Assembly: GCA_963823665.1 (NCBI GenBank)
Contig: CAWGMQ010000003.1
Location: forward strand, 768,001 to 832,000
Reading direction: 5' to 3'
Origin: an uncultured Planctomycetota bacterium
GTDB lineage: Bacteria > Planctomycetota > Planctomycetia > Isosphaerales > Isosphaeraceae
DNA: 64,000 nt
Position numbers and translations under genes: made by a program. This document shows positions 27,713 through 40,633 of the stretch, piece after piece. The notes beneath the pieces were generated by a model. That model did not search any database. It was not told the DNA's origin and saw only the letters and a list, made by a program, of their open reading frames with translations. Within the stretch, counting starts at the first letter, position 1. Every line of letters begins with the position of its first letter.

Positions 27713-29298
27713 ATGTCCTCTGACACACAAATCAATGCGAATCGGCGCAATGCGTTGCGCTCCACTGGGCCGGTTACTCCGGAGGGCCGGGCGAGAAGTG
27801 CTCGCAATAGTCGGAAGCACGGTATGCGGTCGGAGCGGGAGAAGCTCGCGCGGGAGGAAAGCATCGCGTATGAAGCGCGACACTTTCGCTGGTCCGCGCA
27901 TTATGGGGTGGAGAGTGACCCCGAGGAGTTTCTATTAAATGCCAACCTGTTCCTGGCGTCGGACATGGATCGGGTGAGGGGTGCCTACCTGGAACTCACT
28001 CAAAGCCAGATCGACAATGCCGAGGACGACGAGATCAAAGAGGTGCGCGAGACGGGCGAGTTGCTGTTCACCGATTCACGAGGCGTGCCGGTTTCGTTGT
28101 ATGGCACCCGTCGGTTTAACAACAAGAAACCAGGGGGGCCGTCATGGGGTAGCGAAACTGCGCCGGGGATCAAGCCCCAAGAGCTCATGGGGAAACTGGA
28201 ATCGAGTGCGATGGGGTGCTACTGGATCCTGGAGGTTCTGGAGGAACTGCTTGAGCGGCGCGCAAGCGATTCTGGGCAAGCGGCGATCGGCTGATGATGA
28301 TCAGGTTGCTGGGGCGGCATCCTGTGGACGGCGTCGCAGATCGGCGGGTCGCGGAGATCTTCGCCGCAAGCCACGCGATTCGGCCGGTGGGCAAATCGTT
28401 CGACGATCTGCTCAGCGATATGAATGAGCTGGCGCTCGAGGCCCATGTGAAGGAAATCGTGGCGGCGTGGCCTGACCTATCGCAGCGCGGTGAAAAGGAG
28501 GAGGCCAGGCAGAGCCTGATCGACCTGGTGGAAGGCGAGATCGAGCGGGTGTGGGCCATTGCGGCGGAACATGACGAGAATATCAAGGATCAACCTGCGC
28601 GGACGAGGGCGCGCAAGGGGTTTGTTCATTCCAAAGAAGCCAACGCGATGCGGCAATGGTTCGTGCGCGCCAAGGGGTCGGTGGAGCGAGGGGGCAAGGA
28701 TCGGGATGCAAGGTGTGGGGGCGGCGGGCCAGTTGCGGATGGTGGTTCGAACGCGGGCCTTGAAGTTGGCCGTGAGACTCGGGCGGACGGCACACGGAGT
28801 GTGCCTGCTACACCGAATGGGAGGGGCCGCGGGTGGGACTCGGTCGTCGTGGAGGAATCGGAGGTTCTGGCGTGTGGGGGGTACCTTCCGGAGAACTACA
28901 TCGGGATCGCGGGCGAGGGTGACGCGGTGGTCGGCGGGGCGGATGAAGTCTCGAATACTGAAACGGGTAACTCGGATCGTGAGGAAGCCGGGCCTTGCGA
29001 GCCGGATGAACGCGAGAGGAGTTGGCCCGATGATGGACGAGGAACGGGTAGAAGTGGCTTGTGGCGAGCGGTTGGAAGTGGTGGACGGTGGCGCCGGGGC
29101 CGGGTTGACTCTGGACGTTGGCGGGCACGCCCGCTCCGTCGCCGACGGCGACGACCGCCGTCCGGCTCTCCAGTCTGGATAACGTCGCAGAATCGGCACG
29201 CAATTCGCGTAATGGAGCGTGCGGCGCGCAAGAGACCGAATGCACGCAATCGACAGGCTCGTCATGTCGACGGGCTTGAGGTATGTTGTCGACATTGA
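27713..29298 (+). CDS. Hypothetical protein of the 'QI.ANRRNA..STGP.T.EG..S..N..KHG' family with low-complexity tail (frameshift ~28260)
   Basis: MSSDTQINANRRNALRSTGPVTPEGRARSARNSRKHG; joins RFWASGDRLMMIRLLGRHP in the next frame; 3' end uncertain. Confidence 0.72.
28783..28811 (-). repeat. GTAG-family REP-like palindrome embedded in the CDS
   Basis: Minus strand GTAGCAGGCACACTCCGTGTGCCGTCCGC (GGCACAC/GTGTGCC stem); translated in frame as ADGTRSVPAT. Confidence 0.7.
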
Positions 29299-29419: not shown

Positions 29420-31264
29420 ATGAAGCCCCACTTGGAACTTCCAGAGCTCGGTGCGGTCTTCCAGGCGATCGGAACCTGTCGTTTTCGCGTCTGGGCACCA
29501 CTCGTCCCGCGAGTGAGCGTTCACCTGCTCCATGACGACCGGCGGATTTCGCTCGAGCCGGAGCGCTTCGGCTATCATTCAGCCGTTGTCGAGGACGTCC
29601 AACCCGGCGATCGCTATCTCTTCGAGATTGGCAATGATCGCGCGCGTCCCGACCCGGCATCGCGGTCTCAGCCCGAGGGTGTGCACGGACCGTCGGAGGT
29701 CGTCGAGACCAGCTTCAACTGGACCGACGGGGACTGGAACAGCCCGAATCTCGACGATTTTGTAATCTACGAGCTCCATGTCGGCACATTCTCGACCGAA
29801 GGAACCTTCGATGCGGCAATCGCTGATATGGATCGCCTCCGCAGCCTGGGCGTCACGGCCGTCGAGCTGATGCCCGTCGCTCAGTTTCCAGGCGCGAGAA
29901 ACTGGGGCTACGACGGGGTCTATCCCTTTGCCGTCCAGGCAAGCTACGGCGGCCCCACCGGGCTCAAGCGCTTCGTCGACGCGTGTCACGCTCGCGGGCT
30001 CGCCGTGATCCTCGACGTCGTCTTTAACCACCTCGGACCGGAGGGAAACTACCTCCGCGACTTCGGCCCATACTTCACCGACCAGTACCGTACGCCCTGG
30101 GGCGAGGCCTTGAACTTTGATGGCCCGAGCAGCGATCGCGTCCGCGAATTCTTCCTGGCCAACGCCGCCATGTGGCAAACCGAGTTTCACGTTGACGCAT
30201 TGCGCCTCGACGCGGTTCATGCAATCAAGGACGCCTCGGCCTACCCATTTCTTGCCGAGCTTGCCGACTCCACGTCCCGTCGCGCCCATGAGCTGGGCAG
30301 ACGCTTTCATCTGATCGCCGAGAGCGACCTGAACGACACCCGGCTCGTCCGGCCGTCGCACACCGGAGGCATGGGCATGGACGCCATGTGGAGCGACGAT
30401 TACCATCACGCGCTTCACACCCTCTTGACCGGCGAGCGCTCCGGGTACTACGAAGACTTTGGAAGGCTCGAAGACCTCGTCGTAGCCTACAGAACAGGCT
30501 TCACCTACAGCGGCCAGTACTCTCGCTTTCGCGACCGTCGACACGGCAACAACCCGGCAGGCCTCGAGCCATGGCGCTTCGTCGTCTCCTCGCAGAATCA
30601 CGACCAGGTCGGCAACCGCGCACAAGGAGAACGGTTGGGTTCGCTCTGCGACTGGGAAAGTCAGAAACTCGCGGCGGGACTGGTGCTCCTCTCGCCATTC
30701 ATCCCGCTCCTCTTCATGGGAGAGGAATTCGGGGAAACCGCGCCGTTTCTCTATTTCGTCAGCCACGGCGATCCTGCCCTCGTTGACGCGGTGCGCCGCG
30801 GCCGCCGTGAAGAATTCGCAAGGTTCTCCTGGAATGACGAGGTTCCCGACCCACAAGACGAGGCGACATTCATCAGATCCAAGCTGAACCGCACTCTGGC
30901 CAATGACGGCCGTGGAAAGATCCTACACCGCCTCTACCACGAGCTGATCCACCTGCGAAAAACAGCCCCAGCCCTTAGCCGCCGTGGCTGCTCGCCTCCC
31001 GAGCTCTTCGTCGACCCCTCCGGTTGCATTCTCATCGACCGCCGAGCCGAGTGCGCATCCGCTCTTCTCCTGTTCAATCTCGGCGATCGGAGCGCCTCTT
31101 TGCAGCCGAGGCGGACCGGCGGGCCTTGGCTGAAGGTCTTCGACTCATCGGCAACGCGCTGGGACGGCCCGGGTGAAGAGCTCCCCGCCACGATCCCCCC
31201 CGGCAATGCCGCCACGCTCGGCGTTCCACGACGGTCTTTCGCTGTTTTTCTTCTCGGTTCCTGA
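29420..31264 (+). CDS. treZ: Malto-oligosyltrehalose trehalohydrolase
   Basis: FRVWAP, PDPASRSQPEGVHGPS, YELHVGTF, RNWGYDG, LRLDAVH, QNHDQVGNR, FMGEE. Confidence 0.95.
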   Translation: MKPHLELPELGAVFQAIGTCRFRVWAPLVPRVSVHLLHDDRRISLEPERFGYHSAVVEDVQPGDRYLFEIGNDRARPDPASRSQPEGVHGPSEVVETSFNWTDGDWNSPNLDDFVIYELHVGTFSTEGTFDAAIADMDRLRSLGVTAVELMPVAQFPGARNWGYDGVYPFAVQASYGGPTGLKRFVDACHARGLAVILDVVFNHLGPEGNYLRDFGPYFTDQYRTPWGEALNFDGPSSDRVREFFLANAAMWQTEFHVDALRLDAVHAIKDASAYPFLAELADSTSRRAHELGRRFHLIAESDLNDTRLVRPSHTGGMGMDAMWSDDYHHALHTLLTGERSGYYEDFGRLEDLVVAYRTGFTYSGQYSRFRDRRHGNNPAGLEPWRFVVSSQNHDQVGNRAQGERLGSLCDWESQKLAAGLVLLSPFIPLLFMGEEFGETAPFLYFVSHGDPALVDAVRRGRREEFARFSWNDEVPDPQDEATFIRSKLNRTLANDGRGKILHRLYHELIHLRKTAPALSRRGCSPPELFVDPSGCILIDRRAECASALLLFNLGDRSASLQPRRTGGPWLKVFDSSATRWDGPGEELPATIPPGNAATLGVPRRSFAVFLLGS

Positions 31265-31279
31265 GAGGATCTTGCTCCC

Positions 31280-34200
31280 TTGGCTCGATACGCATGCATT
31301 CATGGCCACTTCTATCAGCCTCCGCGCGAGAGCCCCTGGCTGGAAATGATCGAGCTCCAGGACTCGGCTTATCCCTTTCACGACTGGAACGAGCGCACCA
31401 CCGCCGAGTGCTACGCTCCCAACTCCGTCGCACGCGTGCTCGATGCCAGTGGCCGCATCCTACGTCTTGTGAACAATTATTCACGCATAAGTTTCGATTT
31501 TGGGCCGACCTTGCTGCCCTGGATCGAATCTAACGCGCCCGACGTCTACCAGCGCGTGCTCGACGCCGACCGCGAAAGCCAAAGCTCCTTCGCGGGCCAT
31601 GGCTCAGCCATTGCACAAGTATACAATCATATCATACTGCCTTTGGCAAACGATGACGACCGCAGAACCCAAGTCGACTGGGGAATTCGCGACTTCCGCC
31701 ATCGCTTCGGTCGCGAGCCCGAGGGAATGTGGCTCGCCGAGACCGCCGCCGACATCCCCACCCTCGAGGTTCTGGCCGAGTATGGCGTCCGCTTCACCGT
31801 GCTCGCCCCCAACCAGGCGGCGCGTGTCCGTAAAGTCGGGTCTCTTGAATGGACCGACGTGAGTGGGGCAAGGATCGACCCCTCCGTCCCCTACGTTCAG
31901 AAACTCCCGTCCGGGCGCTCGCTCGCTCTCTTCTTCTACGATGGACCGGTCTCGCAGGCCGTCGCGTTCGAGAAGCTGCTCACGCGCGGAGAATCCCTCG
32001 CCGGCCGCTTGATCTCGGCATTCTCGGACCTGCGCGAGGGCGACCAGTTGGTCCATATCGCGACCGACGGTGAATCCTACGGCCACCACCACGCGCACGG
32101 CGATATGGCCCTGGCCTCCGCCCTCGAACTTCTCGCCGCTACCCCGGAAATAACTCTGACGAACTACGGCCAGTTTCTCGAAAACCACCCGCCACAGTCT
32201 GAAGTCGAGATCTTCGAGAATTCCTCCTGGAGCTGCGCCCATGGCGTCGAGCGCTGGCGGTCGAATTGCGGGTGCAACTCGGGCCGGGCCGGCTGGCATC
32301 AAGATTGGCGCAGCCCCTTCGAGCCGCCCTCGATGCTCTCCGCGACAGTGGACGCACCTTGTACGAGCAGCATGCAAGGGAGCTGCTCAAAGATCCTTGG
32401 GCCGCCCGCAACGAATACATCGAGATCATCCTCGACCGGTCTCCCGAAACAATCGACGCCTGGTTCGCGCGACACGCGCGACGAGCGCTCTCCGGCGCCG
32501 AGCGCGTGCAGGCGATCAAGCTGCTCGAGATGCAGCGCCATTCATTGTTGATGTATACCAGTTGCGGATGGTTCTTCGACGAGATCTCCGGACTTGAGAC
32601 AGTCCAGATTCTCCAGTACGCCGCCAGGATGATCCAGCTTGCCGAGGAGACGTGCGGCGCGAGCCTGGAGCCCTCGTTTCTCGAGCAATTGTCCCTCGCT
32701 CCCAGCAATCTCCCTGACCTTCACCCCACCGGGCGCGAAGTCTACGAGAAATTCGTGAGCACCTTCCGGCTCGGCTGGCAGAATGTCGCCGCCCACTTCG
32801 CCGTCGCCTCGCTCTTCCGGTCCGTCGAGGAATCATCTCAGATCTCCTGCTACGACGTCGTCCAGAACGCAGCACAAGTCCGCGAGGCCGGAAGCGTCAA
32901 GCTGTTGGTCGGCCAGGCGCGTCTCGAATCCCGCATCACCCTGGAGTCCTGGCACTTCGCCTATTCCGCCCTGCACCTCGGCGATCACAACGTGAACGCC
33001 GGCGTGATCGCCTACCCCGGCGACCAGCCCTACGAGGAGATCGCCGCTCAACTGGCTGAAGCCTTCGCAACCGTCGAAACGCCCCAGATCATTCGCCTCA
33101 TGGATCGCTTCTTTGGTGAGGCTGGCTACTCGATCGCCTCTCTCTTCCGCGACCTCCAGCGCCAGGTGCTCAAGAGTCTCTTCCGCGAGCGCCTCACCAT
33201 GATCACCGAGATGTATCAGCGCGTCTTCGATTCCAACCTGCCGCTGATGCGGTTCCTCCAGCACCTCTCGGCACCCATTCCGATGCCCCTCCACGCGACC
33301 GCCGAGGTCCTCTTCAACTCCGACTTGCGATGGGCGCTCAAGGACGACGCCCCGGACTTCGATCAGATAAGGCGCCTCTTTCATGAGGCGCAGACATGGA
33401 GCCTCCCGCTGGACGGCAACGGACTCAGCTACCAGCTCACCAAGACGCTCGACCGCGCCGCCCAGCGCTGGCTGGCTGAGCCGGATCAGCTCGAACCCCT
33501 GAACGTCCTGGCGTCCGGCATCGACCTGGCGCGCGAGCTCCCGTTCGAGCCCAATATCTGGACGCCGCAGAACGTCTACTTCGAGGTGCGCGGTCGCGTC
33601 TTCGAACAAATGGCCGAACAGGCGGCCCAGAGCGAGGCCGCTGCAAATTGGGTCAATGAATTCTTGAGCCTCGGCGAAAAGCTGGGAATTGTCGTCGAAG
33701 CCGAAAAAAAAAAGAGCCTCCAGTTGGGGGCCCGCCCCAGGATCGAGCTCTTGATCGATGAGTGCTTGGGCTCCCGTCACGTCCCGAGCGCAACCTATCG
33801 CCTCCAGTTGAACAGCGACTTCTCCTTCGAGGCCGCGCAAGCCCTCGTTCCCTACCTGCACGCCCTGGGCGCGAGCGACGTCTACGTCTCACCTATCCTC
33901 CAGGCGCGGCCCGGCAGTCGCCACGGCTACGACGTCTGCGATCACTCCCGGATCAGCGAAGATCTGGGCGGCGAGCCCGCGCTGCTCGACCTGGCCGCGG
34001 CCCTCGAAGCCCGGAACATGGGCCTGGTGCTCGACGTCGTCCCCAACCATATGGCTGTGGGAAACGCGGCCAATGCCTGGTGGGCAGATGTGCTCGAGCA
34101 CGGCGCCAGCTCGCATTACGCGGAGTTCTTCGACATCGACTGGCACCCGACCAACCCCGATCTGAAAGACAAGGTCCTCCTCCCTATCCTGGGCGATCAG

Positions 34201-36747
34201 TATGGCAAGACCCTCGAGGCCAGGCAGCTCCAGCTCTCGTACGGCGCCGGCGGCTTCCTCATCCACTATTACGACTCAACCCTCCCGGTCTCGCCGCGAT
34301 CCTATCTCCGGATTCTCTCGCCCCAGATCGAAGAGTTGACCCGCCGCTTGGGCGATGACCATGACCAGTTGCTGGAATACCGCAGCATTCTCACCGCCCT
34401 CAAACACCTTCCGCCGCCCACCGGCCTTCAAGAAGAACGCCAGGCCGAGCGGTATCGCGAAGTCGCAATCATCAAGAGGCGCCTCGCGGCCCTCGCGGAA
34501 GCAAGCCCCGACGTGCTCACGATGGTCACCGCCGCGGTCGATCGCTTCAACGGGCGGATCGGCAGCTCGGAAAGCTTCGACGAGCTCGACGCCCTGATCG
34601 CCGATCAGTCCTACCGGCCGGCTTTCTGGCGCGTCGCGATGGACGAGATCAATTACCGCCGCTTCTTCGACATCAATGAGCTGGCCGCGATCCGCATCGA
34701 AAACCCTCGCGTATTCGACGCCACACACGACGTGATCTTCCGCATCCTCGCCGGTGTCCCTCGTTGTGGTCTTCGGATCGATCATCCCGACGGGCTGTAC
34801 AACCCCGCACGCTACTTCCAGAACCTTCAAGAACGCTATCTGCTCGACCAGCTCCAGGCACGACTCGAGGGCGCCCCCTTGACCTCCCCGATCAGGCGCG
34901 AGGCTCTTTCTGCCCTGTCGGCACACCTGGCCAACGGAAAGCCCGCCCCCCTCTACGTCGTCGTCGAGAAAATCCTGGGCGAAGACGAGCCCTTGCCCCA
35001 TGACTGGCGCGTCGATGGTACCAGCGGATACGACTTCTTGAACGCCTGCAACCGCCTTTTCGTCCAGGAGCAGAGTGTCGCCGCTCTCGAACGCCTCTAC
35101 CACGAGCTCACCGCCGAAACCCGCAGCCTGGGCACACTCGTTCGCGATTGCAAACAAATCATAATGCAAACATCAATGGCAAGCGAGATCATCACCTTGA
35201 GTCACCAGCTCGACCGGATCACCGAGCGGAACAGGCGCTACCGTGACTTCACTTTCAGCAACTTGAGGCACGCAATCCGCGAGTTCATCGCCAGTCTGGC
35301 CATCTATCGCAGCTACACAACGCCCGACGCCAGGGTCTCCGACCGCGACCGCCATTTCATCGAGCTCGCTTGTGAACAAGCCAAGCTGGTCAATCAGCGC
35401 GTCTCCGAGGGCATCTTCGACTTCATCCGCGACACCGTCCTGCTGAGCAGTTTGGATCAGTTTCCCCCCGGCGACCGCCCGCGCATCCTCGACTGGGTCC
35501 TCCGCTTCCAGCAGGTCACGGGCCCGATCATGGCCAAGGGCATCGAAGACACAGCCTTTTACGTCTATAACAAGCTGATTTCGCTCAACGAAGTCGGAGG
35601 GCACCCGGATCGCTGCGAATCGACCCTTGAGGCTTTCCACAACCTCAATGCCGAACACGCAGAGCACTGGCCGTGCACCATGCTCTGCTCGTCCACCCAC
35701 GACACGAAACGCAGCGAGGACGTCCGCGCTCGGTTGAGCGTCCTCTCCGAGCTCGTCGACGACTGGGCCCAATCGATCGCCCAGTGGTTCGAGCTCACCA
35801 GGAATCACCTCGCACAAGTCGACGGAAAACCCGCTCCCACCGCCAACGACCGGTACCTCCTCTTTCAGACCCTGCTGGGCACCTGGCCCGACCCCACCCC
35901 GGCTTCTTCGCAAGAGCTTGCGGTCTATCGCGATCGCATCCTTGCCTATATGGAGAAGGCCATAAAGGAAGCGAAGCAGAACAGCAACTGGGTCAACCCG
36001 AACGTGCAGTACGACGAGGCCGTCCGCTCCTTCGTCGCCACCTTGCTCTCGGACCGCCCGGACAATCCCTTCCGCAAATCGTTCGCCCCATTCGCGCGGC
36101 GCGTAGCCCGTCTGGGCCGCTTCAATTCCCTCGCCCAGGTGGTGCTGAAACTTACCGCCCCGGGTGTTCCTGACATCTACCAGGGTAACGAAATCTGGGA
36201 TTTCAGCCTGGTCGATCCCGACAATCGACGCCCCGTCTGCTTTGAGAGCCGCGCCAGGATCCTCGACTCCCTCCGCCCATTGCTCGACCAACCCACCGAA
36301 AACCTCGACCGGCAAGTCGCGGACTTGTTGGCCCACGCGATCGACGGACGTATCAAGATGTACGTCACGTCTCGCTTGCTTCGTCACCGCCAGTCAAATC
36401 CCGAGCTGTTCAAGTTTGGGAGCTACCTGCCAGTCAAGCCCGTCGGCTCGAAGGCAGAATGTCTCTGTGCATTCCAGCGCCAGCACAACGACCGCGCCCT
36501 GATCGTCGCGACTTGCATTCGACCGGCAAGCGTCGCGCCAGAGGAAACTGCCCCTCCAGTCGGAAATGCCGCGTGGGCGGAGACATTCCTACCTTTGCAC
36601 AACTTGCCTTCCGACATGAGACTGACTGAGATCCTGACAGGCCGTGAGCTCCGATCCACGATGGGCCAGGAAGGCGAGGCGCGCCTGGCCCTGAGCCAGG
36701 TTTTCGCGACCCTCCCCGTCGCCGCGATCGCGGCCAGCCCGGCCTAG
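31280..36747 (+). CDS. treY: GH57/DUF3536 glycoside hydrolase fused in frame to malto-oligosyltrehalose synthase (one indel at ~32315)
   Basis: HGHFYQPPRE, GMWLAET, ATDGESYGHH, MYTSCGWFF (GH57); then VPSATYRLQ, HGYDV, DVVPNHM, INYRRFFDI, LRIDHPDG, STHDTKRSEDVR, LVDPDNRR (TreY); no stop codon between the domains. Confidence 0.9.
33704..33747 (+). other. A10 run / A_AAA_AAG slippery heptamer plus downstream hairpin at the GH57-TreY junction
   Basis: In-frame codons GAA AAA AAA AAG (33703-33714); TTGGGG-gcccg-CCCCAG stem at 33724-33740. Confidence 0.55.
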
Positions 36748-36891
36748 CTTCGAACAAAGGTGCCAGGAACCGAAAAAACCTGGTTCCCGCTCCCAGCGAG
36801 GAAAAGGACGTGCTCGACTGAGGACAACGAATCAAGCTTCGGCTCCAGGACGTTGCGGAAATCTCCGCCGTCGCCGCCGGCATCATCCATG

Positions 36892-36996: not shown

Positions 36997-38007
36997 TCAC
37001 TTCACGCCCCCCAAGTGCTCCTCCAGCAGTCGCATCCCCTGCTCAATACTGATCCTTGGCTCATACCCCAAATCGCGCCGCGCCGCGTCGATCTTGAACC
37101 AGTGCGTCGTCGAAAGCTGGCGAACCAGAAATCGTGTGAGCGGCGGCTCGGCCGTTTGACCCGACAGCAAGTAGCCCAGCTCGAGCAGCCCGGCCGTAGC
37201 AATCGCCACCGGCCGCTTGATCGATCGCCTCACCGGCGCCATGCCCGCGGCGGCCAGCAGCCGGTCGATCATTGTCCACAGGGGAATGATCTCGCCCTGT
37301 GTGACAAAATAAACCTTGCCCGCGATCGGACTGCCCGGCTCAAGCATGTCGGCGGCCAGGAAGTGGGCCTGGGCCGCATTGTCGATGTAAATCGGGTCAA
37401 TCTTCGGCTCACCGTCGCCGATGCGACGCAACCGCCCACTTTGCGCCCGTGAAATGATCCTGGGCAAGAGGTTGTTGTCTCCCGGCCCCCAGATCAAATG
37501 CGGGCGAATCGACACCGCTGCGAGGTCCTTGCCGTTCGCCGCGATGATGAGCTGCTCGGCGCAGCGCTTTTGTCTTGGGATAGCTGGCATCAAACCGGCT
37601 CGGGTAAGGCGCCGTCTCGTCGGCTCCCTCCATCGCGCGGCCGTTGAACACCACGCTCGGCGAGCTCGTGAAGATGATCCGTCGCGCCCCCAGCCGCCGG
37701 CAGGCGTCGATCACATTCGTCGTTCCCTGCACGTTCACGCGCTCATACTCACGCTCCGGTCCCCACAGGCCGGCCTTCGCCGCCGTGTGGAAGACCGTCC
37801 GGCAACCCTCGACGGCGCGATCGACCGCAGCCGCGTCGGAGACATCGCCTTGGATCTGCTCGACTTCGAGTTTGGCGAGGTGCGAATAATACCGCCGCGA
37901 AAGGCTGCGCACAGGCAATCCACGTCGCGCGCAAACGCGACCAGCGCGCTGCCCAGGAACCCGCCGCCGCCGGTCACCAGAACCTTGCCCAGCCCGGAAT
38001 CGCTCAT
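36997..38007 (-). CDS. oleD: NAD-dependent epimerase/dehydratase, OleD-type 2-alkyl-3-oxoalkanoate reductase (two frameshifts)
   Basis: VLVTGGGGFLG, FHTAAKAG.WG, TSSPSVVF, YPKTK, IRPHLIWGPGD; start overlaps the oleC stop. Confidence 0.85.
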
Positions 38008-39710
38008 GACAGCTTTCTCGTCGCCCACTCGGCCAGCTTTTCGCGGAAGATCTTGGCGTTGTGCCGCGCATCCACCGGAAAGCTAGGGTGAAATAAGATC
38101 GTTCGAATGTTCATGGTGTGCGCGAATAAAGCCCCGCGCTCGAGAAGCTCTCGCGCAACCCGTTGCCGCTCGACACGAGTTAATCGCCGTACAGGCTCGA
38201 CGCAGATCACCGGCGTCACCTCGCCCTTGACGAGTGCTCCCACAAGCGCCGTCCTCGCCACTTCCGGATGCGCGTTGAAGATTGCCTCGCACGGAATCGT
38301 GAAATACGTCTGCCCGCGAGCGATCACCCGGTGCAACTTGCGGCCGCAGAACCAGAGCCTTCCCTTCTCGTCTCGATAGCCGACGTCGCCCATGCGATGC
38401 AAGACAGCGTCGCCTTGGGCACTCTTGATCTTGGCGAGTGCCGTTGCTTCCGGTCGATCGAAATACGCACGCGTCACAACCGGCCCCGACACCACAAACT
38501 CACCGATCTCCCCGTTCGAGACCAGCAAGTCTCCAGACCAGGTCGCGATCGGTCGATCATGGATCGAGATCACCTCGACCTCCATCCCATTCGCCGGCGT
38601 GCCCACGCAGACGCCCATCCCGCGCTCGGTCGCCGCCCGCGTCTCGCTCAGGATTTCGTCGCTGCCGATCGATGCGACGGGAAGTGACTCGGTCGCCCCG
38701 TACGGCGTGTAAATCTGCGCGGGTGGATCGATCAGCCGCGCCAGTCGCTCGATCAGCGCCGCCGAGACCGGGGCCCCCGCGGAGATGATCCGCTTGAGCG
38801 TCGGCAATCGGATCGCGGAAGCCTCGGCTCCCTCGGCCAGCCGCCGCAGCAAGGCCGGCGACCCGAACAGGTTGGTAATGCCGAAGTCTTCAACCGCCTC
38901 GAAAAGCTTGAACGGGTCGACCCGCGCGGGCCGAGTCGGATCCATGTCGGGAACCACCGCCGTCATCCCGAGTGCCGGTGCGAACAAGGCAAACAGCGGG
39001 AACGTGCACAGATCAATCTCGCCCGGCTCGATCTTGTAGAGCGCACGGAACGCATTCACCTGCGCAAGGAAGATCGCGTGCGAATAGACCGCCCCTTTGG
39101 GCGGGCCCGTGCTGCCGCTGGTAAAGAGGATCGCGGCCGTTTCATCGGTCGCTCCCGGAGTGACCAGAGGCGCACTGCCGGGCTGCTTGGCGAGCTCGTA
39201 GTTTCCCGCGAAACGCAGGTATTCAAGTGTCTTGATTTTTTCCCCGAACGACGGCACGCCGGGGCCGACCCACACCCGCTGCTTCACGGTCCGGCCGCCC
39301 CAGGCAAGGATCCGCTGCGCCGCGATCGCCTTCGGTATGCCGATGAACGCGTCGGGTGCCGCTTGTGCGCAGCAATGGGCAAGACCCTTCATACCGATGC
39401 CCGGATCGATCACGACCGGAACAATGCCCGCCTTGAAGAGCGCAAACACCAGGGAAAAGAAGTCGAGGCCGGGGCGAACCATCAGCACGGCCCGAGCTCC
39501 GCGCTCGATCCCCGCGGCGTAGAGGCCAAGGGCAATCGCATCGCTGTCGCGGTCGAGCCCACGGTACGTGAGATGCGTGTAACACGCGCGTCCGGCGTGG
39601 TCTCTTCCCGCCGGCGCGATCACCGCCGGCTTGTACGGCTCGCTCGCCGCCATCGCGACCAGGTGGCCCGCGATGTTCACAGGCTCGCTGAGAACAAGTT
39701 TCTGGCTCAA
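38004..39710 (-). CDS. oleC: Olefin beta-lactone synthetase (AMP-binding family)
   Basis: AAILFTSGSTGPPKG, TPYGATESLPV, HRMGD, FPVDARHNAKIFRE; lies between oleB and oleD. Confidence 0.9.
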   Translation of the reverse strand: MSQKLVLSEPVNIAGHLVAMAASEPYKPAVIAPAGRDHAGRACYTHLTYRGLDRDSDAIALGLYAAGIERGARAVLMVRPGLDFFSLVFALFKAGIVPVVIDPGIGMKGLAHCCAQAAPDAFIGIPKAIAAQRILAWGGRTVKQRVWVGPGVPSFGEKIKTLEYLRFAGNYELAKQPGSAPLVTPGATDETAAILFTSGSTGPPKGAVYSHAIFLAQVNAFRALYKIEPGEIDLCTFPLFALFAPALGMTAVVPDMDPTRPARVDPFKLFEAVEDFGITNLFGSPALLRRLAEGAEASAIRLPTLKRIISAGAPVSAALIERLARLIDPPAQIYTPYGATESLPVASIGSDEILSETRAATERGMGVCVGTPANGMEVEVISIHDRPIATWSGDLLVSNGEIGEFVVSGPVVTRAYFDRPEATALAKIKSAQGDAVLHRMGDVGYRDEKGRLWFCGRKLHRVIARGQTYFTIPCEAIFNAHPEVARTALVGALVKGEVTPVICVEPVRRLTRVERQRVARELLERGALFAHTMNIRTILFHPSFPVDARHNAKIFREKLAEWATRKLS

Positions 39711-40633
39711 CCGACAGGCTCCTCCATGGCAGGCTGCTTCGCGAGGAACTGCTGCACGAGCCCGCTGATCGAATCGGCTTCATCCTCGAACAGATAATGC
39801 CCGGCGTGCGGAAAGCGATGCACCCGTGCCGCGGGAAACTTGCCCTCCCACTCCTCGAGAAAACGGTGATCGAAGACAAAGTCTTTCATGCCCCAAAGGA
39901 TGAGCATGGGAACCGATTGAAGCCGGTGCAGCCGCTCCTGCACCCACGACACCAGCTCGTAGCTGCGATCACCCGGCGCGAGCGGAATGTCCTGGACGAA
40001 TCGATGAACAGCGATCCGATTGCTCCATGAGTCATAGGGGTACACGTACGCCCGCCACAAATCGCGTGGCATCATTCGCCGCTTGCATCCGATCAGCGCC
40101 GTTCCGTGGCAGAATGCGTTGCCGCCCCTGACCATCACCGCCGCCAGCGGCGATCGTCGACAGAAGGCCAGCACGCGCGGCAGCCGTTTCGACTGCGGCA
40201 AATGAAACGCCGCGGTATTCGTCACGACCAGCCGGGCGATCCGTTCTGGATGCCTGGCCGCATAAGCCATGCCGATCATGCCGCCCCAATCGTGCACGAT
40301 CAGCGTGAGCTCGCGATCGAGGCCGAGGTATTCCAGGAGCGCCTCCAGATCATCGACCCGGCTCTCGAGCGTGTAAGCATACCGCGAATCATCGGGCTTT
40401 TCGGAAAGGCCACAGCCGATATGGTCGGGCACGATCACTCGATGCGAGCCGCGCAGCGACTCGATCAAGCGCCGGTAAAGGAACGACCAGGTGGGGTTGC
40501 CGTGAAGCATCACCACCGGATCGCCCGCGCCTTCGTCGATGTAATGAAGCCGCAGCCCGCGGCAGTCGAAATCGCGCCCGGGGTGGTTCGACAGGAACGC
40601 CTCGAGCACTTGCCGTACTTTCTTGATCGTCAT
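39707..40633 (-). CDS. oleB: Haloalkane-dehalogenase-like hydrolase, OleB beta-lactone decarboxylase
   Basis: HGNPTWSF, PDHIGCGLS, VHDWGG (Asp nucleophile), RFVQDIPL, WGMKDFVF, AGHY. Confidence 0.88.
   Translation of the reverse strand: MTIKKVRQVLEAFLSNHPGRDFDCRGLRLHYIDEGAGDPVVMLHGNPTWSFLYRRLIESLRGSHRVIVPDHIGCGLSEKPDDSRYAYTLESRVDDLEALLEYLGLDRELTLIVHDWGGMIGMAYAARHPERIARLVVTNTAAFHLPQSKRLPRVLAFCRRSPLAAVMVRGGNAFCHGTALIGCKRRMMPRDLWRAYVYPYDSWSNRIAVHRFVQDIPLAPGDRSYELVSWVQERLHRLQSVPMLILWGMKDFVFDHRFLEEWEGKFPAARVHRFPHAGHYLFEDEADSISGLVQQFLAKQPAMEEPVG

Follow-up and report, generated by a model that had tools for sequence, protein, structure and literature searches.

Productive slippage has been reported in few chromosomal gene families, among them dnaX, the type III secretion genes of Shigella and tssM (PMC5009743, PMC4256274). 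Bacterial RNA polymerase (RNAP) is described as slipping efficiently on nine A or T, with a hybrid of 9-10 bp, and the A9 slippage site of Thermus thermophilus dnaX, which gives tau and gamma, is closely followed by a stop in each of the two non-zero frames and occurs in a host with two tRNA-Lys (PMC5009743). Beside the in-frame A9 form, there are dnaX genes in which the run is A10 and the frame is off by one base (PMC3711429). In the tssM gene of Citrobacter rodentium, an A11 transcriptional frameshift gives a short and a full-length product (PMC4256274), and in E. coli dnaX and copA an N-terminal protein and a long form arise through -1 frameshifting (PMC5009743). Here we describe a run of ten A (A10) in a 64,000-nucleotide stretch of the genome of an uncultured Planctomycetota bacterium (contig CAWGMQ010000003.1, positions 768,001 to 832,000; hereafter the window). 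The run lies at the seam of a fusion between a DUF3536-type glycoside hydrolase of family 57 (GH57) and the malto-oligosyltrehalose synthase TreY, and the comparison of homologous junctions suggests that it is probably a transcriptional slippage site, from which both GH57 and the GH57-TreY fusion would be obtained.

The likeness to Thermus dnaX (PMC5009743) lies in the 9-10 A at a domain boundary with near stops in both other frames; together with the two-ORF poly-A dnaX genes, it extends to the N-terminal short product, to the two tRNA-Lys and to the occurrence of in-frame and one-base-out versions, the dnaX pairing of an out-of-frame A10 with an in-frame A9 (PMC3711429) being the same as that of the GH57-TreY loci. 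Unlike dnaX, GH57-TreY joins two unrelated metabolic enzymes (GH57 and the GH13 enzyme TreY) that are separate genes in many taxa, several sister lineages no longer have the run, and slippage is predicted from its sequence. The layout of tssM is like that of the out-of-frame GH57-TreY loci, but tssM encodes one interrupted secretion-system protein for which a ratio requirement was tested (PMC4256274), whereas the GH57-TreY run has 9-10 A and is mostly in frame. With E. coli dnaX and copA (PMC5009743) the locus has in common an N-terminal protein beside a long form and, in the window, an A_AAA_AAG heptamer; it differs from them in that only 8 of 22 run-bearing loci have this heptamer in phase, no stem-loop is conserved and a tRNA-Lys(CUU) is present. 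As to the enzyme itself, PoGH57 of Pontibacter sp. SGAir0037, a suggested 4-alpha-glucanotransferase, is also a DUF3536 GH57 with HGHFY and E[ST]YGHH motifs near TreY and TreZ genes, but there it is a separate gene for which neither fusion nor recoding is described, and the two were compared by description and not by alignment (PMC11206854). The literature consulted held no report of GH57-treY recoding or of planctomycete slippage, although a listing may have gone unnoticed in the GeneTack clusters in the supplement of PMC3711429, which was not searched. The mechanism is known, and the GH57-treY gene family appears to be new to it.

The features of the window locus are given in Table 1. A single ORF (32266-36747) carries both DUF3536 and TreY, with the run between the two domains, as the initial annotation had placed it. 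The upstream protein belongs to GH57 by its matches to both PF03065 and PF12055, the two domains being split across two frames by the one-base break listed in the table. Its N-terminal half contains the motifs HGHFY, WLAET and DGESYGHH, and residues 1-347 of homologs align to it, whereas the TreY part contains LRIDHPDG, VEKIL and THDTKRSED, which we take to have catalytic roles. The fusion was the sole TreY match in the window genome (G000; 12 contigs, 16.46 Mb) with the query used, and the order treZ-GH57-treY is identical in G001, a genome of the same genus. The A10 is the only run of at least eight of any base in the 64 kb, which bears out its proposed local rarity, and its codons do hold A_AAA_AAG in phase in the window copy. 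In the whole genome, 48 A/T runs of at least nine were counted from 55 nine-mer matches (41 of length nine, seven of ten, none longer).

Junction DNA was obtained by genome searches and by a pattern on the flanking protein motifs that was blind to run and frame. The pattern gave 67 metagenome and 64 genome matches, 44 of these 131 being dropped for lack of a GH57 C-terminal match, and six of the 34 genome-search loci (L069, L071-L074 and L076) were excluded as having no adjacent GH57/TreY pair; L069 has an A10, but ends at a contig edge, with a downstream TAA. From the 165 loci examined, 115 true junctions (a GH57 C-terminus beside a TreY N-terminus) were retained, and 94 distinct ones remained once 21 near-duplicates had been merged. 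They comprise 17 in-frame fusions with a run, five out-of-frame loci with a run, 35 run-less fusions (including L075, a TreY in which just an N-terminal piece is GH57-like) and 37 split loci. The longest A-run at the seam was A9 in 15 junctions, A10 in seven, A7 in one and five or fewer in 71, with no A8 and no A11 or longer. This distribution is sharply bimodal: the single A7 lies outside the run-bearing clade, no locus of which has A6, A7 or A8. The run is conserved at the homologous position in 22 of the 94 junctions, whereas the other two elements whose conservation the initial annotation had suggested testing, the in-phase A_AAA_AAG and the downstream hairpin, are not conserved across these 22 loci.

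When the seam region was used as a protein query, about 50 proteins that span the seam were recovered; most are full GH57-DUF3536-TreY fusions near 1,820 residues, and several are named Gemmataceae. Among the 50 that were scored, 24 have KKK at the seam, six KK followed by N, M, T or I, three KK and 17 none of these. At the level of sequence, the GH57-DUF3536-TreY fusion is thus real. A protein-seeded metagenome scan found no relative (476 pattern matches, none confirmed), and none of 398 genomes from another planctomycete order contained a junction at E 1e-12; in the family of the window itself, matches were obtained in 3 of 121 genomes. Proteins of a further type, TreY of roughly 1,100 residues (P0053-P0082 and L075), carry at their N-terminus a piece homologous to the final helices of GH57, have no KKK and are possibly relics of the fusion; genomes G514 and G516 each hold a match of this type plus a full fusion. 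In split loci, the GH57 stop and the start of treY often overlap (ATGA type), and an ATG occurs at the seam of several run-less fusions, features seen in a set that includes L181, L198 and Chloroflexota fusions. L198 has an A7 followed by an ATG overlapping a TGA in the +1 frame, and is a possible intermediate.

The codon usage of the 22 run-bearing genes indicates what is conserved. AAA makes up 216 of their 744 other Lys codons (29%), and as few as 0/20, 1/41, 1/38 and 1/34 in L159, L124, L056 and L052, respectively. Elsewhere in these genes, Lys-Lys pairs are written AAA AAA in 2 of 22 cases, and no second A/T run of at least eight was found within 83,798 bases of the run loci. Even so, all 17 in-frame junctions reading KKK have a run of at least nine, the probability of which, given local codon usage, is as low as ~1e-4 at individual loci. 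The run begins at codon position 1 in nine loci, 2 in three and 3 in ten, so that some loci read xxA AAA AAA AAG and others CTT, CTC or GTT followed by AAA AAA AAA, and it is often reached through codons of 1-2% usage (TTA, ATA, CTA). With three registers and rare codons in use, it is the length of the run that is conserved and not its codons. This pattern indicates that the run is under selection and is held at 9-10 against synonymous change.

The sequence past the run is also distinctive. In each of the 17 in-frame run loci, both other frames reach a stop within 20 codons, whereas this holds for 8 of the 35 run-less fusions and 5 of the 13 run-less fusions of the same clade. In six in-frame loci, KKK is followed directly by a rare codon, CTA, GTA or ATA (1-4% of its synonyms), through which a TAG arises in the +1 frame; at the same position, a TGA is present in two other loci. 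With the protein held fixed, early stops in the -1 frame are significant (p 0.002), but the loci are related and not independent. In the window, both stops and the -1 tail are as first proposed, the predicted tails being EPPVGGPPQDRALDR (-1) and RASSWGPAPGSSS (+1). Over all run loci, the predicted short products end at a median of 10-11 residues past the anchor, near the ends of the 37 natural stand-alone GH57s (median 8), and the short product would therefore be a complete natural enzyme. Three GH57 proteins, P0127, P0135 and P0136, end in LKKK plus 2-3 residues; some of them may be contig-end cuts, but judged by sequence they probably represent additional out-of-frame loci, with P0136 perhaps shifted the other way.

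In a FastTree phylogeny built on the flanking protein without the seam, one mostly planctomycete clade (36 rows, support 99) unites all 22 run loci with 14 run-less rows. Split genes and Chloroflexota-labelled fusions, except L156, fall outside this clade and lack the run. L156, a fusion with the run, comes from a 2.2-kb contig in a Dehalococcoidia-labelled record and is nested among planctomycete loci; its placement reflects either transfer or mis-binning. The presence of the run changes at least eight times on the tree. The five out-of-frame loci (L036, L070, L100, L115 and L203), each one base short relative to the fusion, occupy five separate places, corresponding to five changes. In four of them (L070/L215, L100, L115 and L203) the seam is the sole frame break, both halves being stop-free across the fetched stretch. 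L100 has a TAG directly past the run and no ATG, GTG or TTG start for TreY. In L115, a GTG in the TreY frame directly past the run could start TreY alone. Its fused relative P0153 reads KKKW-A-D-L-K with the W codon kept, and from this alignment the base missing in L115 appears to be a G after the run, so that this loss is not a homopolymer miscount.

We propose that RNAP would slip on the run at the GH57-TreY seam and thereby create a mixed mRNA pool from one gene. Unslipped messages would give the fusion of ~1,820 residues, whereas those with one A more or fewer would reach a stop 13-15 codons later and give a complete stand-alone GH57. At the out-of-frame loci the default would be reversed, with GH57 made alone and the fusion only after the addition of one A. 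We infer slippage itself, its transcriptional nature and a need for both products. The Thermus-type transcriptional slippage that the initial annotation had offered as one option fits best, as the feature that is kept is a length of 9-10 in three codon registers. Ribosome sliding is described as robust at A11 with little at A9 or A10 (PMC4363877), and a length of A9-A10 would place the run at the threshold of polymerase slippage but below that of ribosome sliding.

Several points weigh against this proposal. Slippage of planctomycete RNAP on A9 or A10 is assumed by analogy with E. coli and Thermus, and E. coli RNAP is described as slipping less on poly(A) than on poly(T) in short runs (PMC6260861). 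All 22 runs contain an in-phase A_AAA_AAA, A_AAA_AAG or A_AAA_AAC heptamer, and all five out-of-frame loci need the same additional A, which is also compatible with -1 frameshifting. When the protein sequence is kept constant, early stops in the +1 frame do not reach significance (Fisher combined p 0.11), and a phylogeny-aware test of the stops, with four independent pairs on well-supported branches, gave a median p of 0.5, although never in the opposite direction. The length of the window's own run is not certain, G000 carrying indel errors. Finally, the run was lost in 13 fusions of the run-bearing clade; the short product is therefore dispensable in some lineages, and slippage would tune the pathway rather than enable it.

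The main competing explanation is ribosomal recoding, by -1 frameshifting on A_AAA_AAG or A_AAA_AAA or by sliding on AAA, which would make two proteins from a uniform mRNA. We regard it as unlikely, although the slippery heptamer present in phase within every run, the rescue of all five out-of-frame loci by a -1 shift and the -1-frame stops that come early more often than under the synonymous null all agree with it, and poly-A is described as able to serve both programmed ribosomal frameshifting and transcriptional slippage (PMC3711429). A heptamer needs 6-7 A, yet the clade is devoid of A6, A7 and A8, and sliding is weak at A9 and A10 in E. coli extracts (PMC4363877). The E. coli dnaX model in particular, A_AAA_AAG plus a stem-loop, had been suggested for the window and is unsupported: downstream folding with z < -2 was found in 2 of the 22 run loci for 45 nt and in 1 of 22 for 35 nt (mean z 0.1), and the window genome has two tRNA-Lys(CUU) genes beside one tRNA-Lys(UUU) gene. 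The unconserved hairpin, the heptamer in 8 of 22 loci and the presence of tRNA-Lys(CUU) make slippage of the Thermus dnaX type likelier than -1 frameshifting of the E. coli type. Of the original suggestion that one gene yields both GH57 alone and the fusion, the conserved recoding-type site is therefore supported by comparison, and the E. coli dnaX mechanism is not. Duplex energies with the anti-Shine-Dalgarno sequence, calculated for the run loci only, ranged from +0.1 to -9.3 kcal/mol (window, -3.8).

The hairpin proposed in the window has the arms and the 9-nt spacing after AAG that were given for it, but is absent from the minimum-energy fold of 33715-33790, which is no stabler than shuffled sequences (z -0.23). 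It is partly kept in G001, where six of seven aligned positions can pair, one of them with changes on both sides. In view of the fold, its z value and the lack of a conserved downstream structure in the 22 loci, the hairpin was rejected as a stimulator. A reading of the run as part of a minus-strand terminator was also rejected, no terminator-like site being present at the run and antisense folding reaching z < -2 in 0 of 22 loci.

Less probable still is phase variation, in which slipped-strand changes of the DNA would flip the gene heritably between fusion-on and GH57-only states. In-frame and out-of-frame states do occur in sister loci five times, and both are found inside protein clusters of 90% identity (P0153 with P0083, and P0003 with P0171); the tail of P0136, known as protein only, also resembles the form with one A more. 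Mutable tracts, however, differ from a run held at a fixed length, and here the length stays at 9-10, with no 8, 11 or 12. In addition, the base missing from L115 seems to be the G past the run, so that a change of frame is not a change of run length there, and 17 of the 22 run loci are in frame. Phase variation, which had been raised as an option for the window, was judged less likely on account of run lengths of only 9 or 10.

We consider it doubtful that no change of frame is involved, the AAA codons acting as a pause or attenuator at the domain boundary or as an A-rich enhancer for an internal TreY start. The run does sit at the domain seam, iterated AAA codons are described as slowing ribosomes (PMC4363877) and L115 offers its GTG as a TreY start, but the near stops in both other frames and the intact out-of-frame loci would remain unexplained, an ATG, GTG or TTG within six codons past the run exists in only 2 of the 17 in-frame loci, and L100 lacks any such codon for TreY. 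Chance or artefact, an ordinary Lys-Lys-Lys linker combined with homopolymer assembly errors, is very improbable and is largely refuted as an explanation of the conservation of the run, for although single-base indels occur elsewhere in the window genome and G001, both states of the run are seen in error-ridden fragments from close relatives and KKK may be favoured at the protein level (24 of 50 fusion proteins), all 17 in-frame KKK junctions have a run of at least nine at the probabilities given above and four out-of-frame loci have no other break.

The reliability of the window's own run length deserves separate consideration. The initial annotation had cautioned that homopolymers are error-prone, and the assembly does contain single-base indels; it had overlooked that the N-terminal half of GH57 (31280-~32314) lies in a different frame from the DUF3536-TreY ORF, full-length homologs aligning in two frames. 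This break is most likely an assembly indel outside the proposed mechanism, and G000 would be an error-prone long-read assembly. In G001 the seam reads A9 and is out of frame. It is probably an undercall of the run and was not counted as evidence, because GH57 in the same assembly carries three further one-base insertions. The nearest complete relatives, P0001, P0002, P0155 and P0161, are in frame with EKKK, and the seam codons of L124 are identical to those of the window, an A10 thus being shared with a close relative; both observations support an in-frame A10 in the window genome. Contigs from four soil sequencing runs compared over 31200-36800, and from four over 33480-33960, gave no coverage of the run and bear neither for nor against its length.

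Table 1. Features of the treZ-GH57-treY locus, in window coordinates
Feature	Position	Strand	Evidence or remark
treZ, malto-oligosyltrehalose trehalohydrolase, first gene of the treZ-GH57-treY cluster	29420..31264	+	TIGR02402, 715.5 bits (cut-off 538.8)
GH57 (DUF3536-type), N-terminal half, TTG start	31280..32314	+	Pfam Glyco_hydro_57 (PF03065), E 4.8e-17
DUF3536 and C-terminal helices of GH57, end LGEKLGIVV	32314..33696	+	Pfam DUF3536 (PF12055), E 7.6e-105
One-base frame break within GH57	32314..32320	+	Homologs P0001, P0002 and P0155 switch frame here; G001 has one extra base
A10 run, codons GAA AAA AAA AAG (33703-33714); conserved putative slippage site	33704..33713	+	A9/A10 at the homologous position in 22/94 junctions
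Hairpin of the initial annotation, TTGGGG (33724-33729)/CCCCAG (33735-33740)	33724..33740	+	Judged not a stimulator
TGA met with one A fewer (+1 frame), 13 codons past the run	33752..33754	+	
TGA met with one A more (-1 frame), 15 codons past the run	33759..33761	+	
TreY, malto-oligosyltrehalose synthase domain of the fusion	33781..36747	+	TIGR02401, 901.3 bits (cut-off 498.65)

Other features were noted around the locus. Downstream, on the minus strand (36997-38071), a gene for an NAD-dependent epimerase/3-beta-HSD-like protein is split across two frames near 37590, a probable second assembly indel. It adjoins AMP-binding (38004-39710) and alpha/beta-hydrolase (39707-40633) genes, the three together presumably being an olefin cluster of the oleBCD type. 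At the corresponding place after treY, G001 has an ORF judged by eye to be transposase-like (L032, 13051-14775). Upstream of treZ, two overlapping ORFs of 193 and 334 aa (27713-29298) without Pfam match may be one gene broken by an indel. Contig 5 of the window genome carries 11 tRNA genes arrayed on one strand in less than 1.6 kb (L209, 7-1560).

TreY and TreZ release trehalose from the ends of alpha-glucans. Slippage at the seam would supply free GH57 beside GH57-TreY at a set ratio, and its purpose may be to fix how much of the alpha-glucan-remodelling enzyme is free and how much carries TreY, the latter feeding TreZ and trehalose release. The GH57-TreY case would thereby add a storage-carbohydrate and osmoprotectant pathway to the few families with productive slippage, in a phylum for which no case was found in the literature consulted. 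In-frame slippage sites of this kind escape screens for broken ORFs. Current annotation would give one protein of 1,820 residues although two may be produced, and would present the out-of-frame copies as a pseudogene or as two genes. As run-bearing, run-less and flipped alleles all exist naturally, the hypothesis is directly testable.

Tentatively, the fusion may have arisen in three steps, from separate genes (37 loci) through a 'soft' A9/A10 fusion (22 loci) to a 'hard' run-less fusion (13 in the clade). The soft seam would still provide the ancestral free GH57 and allow the default frame to flip freely, and the hard fusions would have lost their run on several occasions. If it is true, slippage would be a buffer that makes the fusion of enzymes evolvable, and possibly a dial, tuned by stress, with which soil planctomycetes shift between remodelling glycogen and releasing trehalose.

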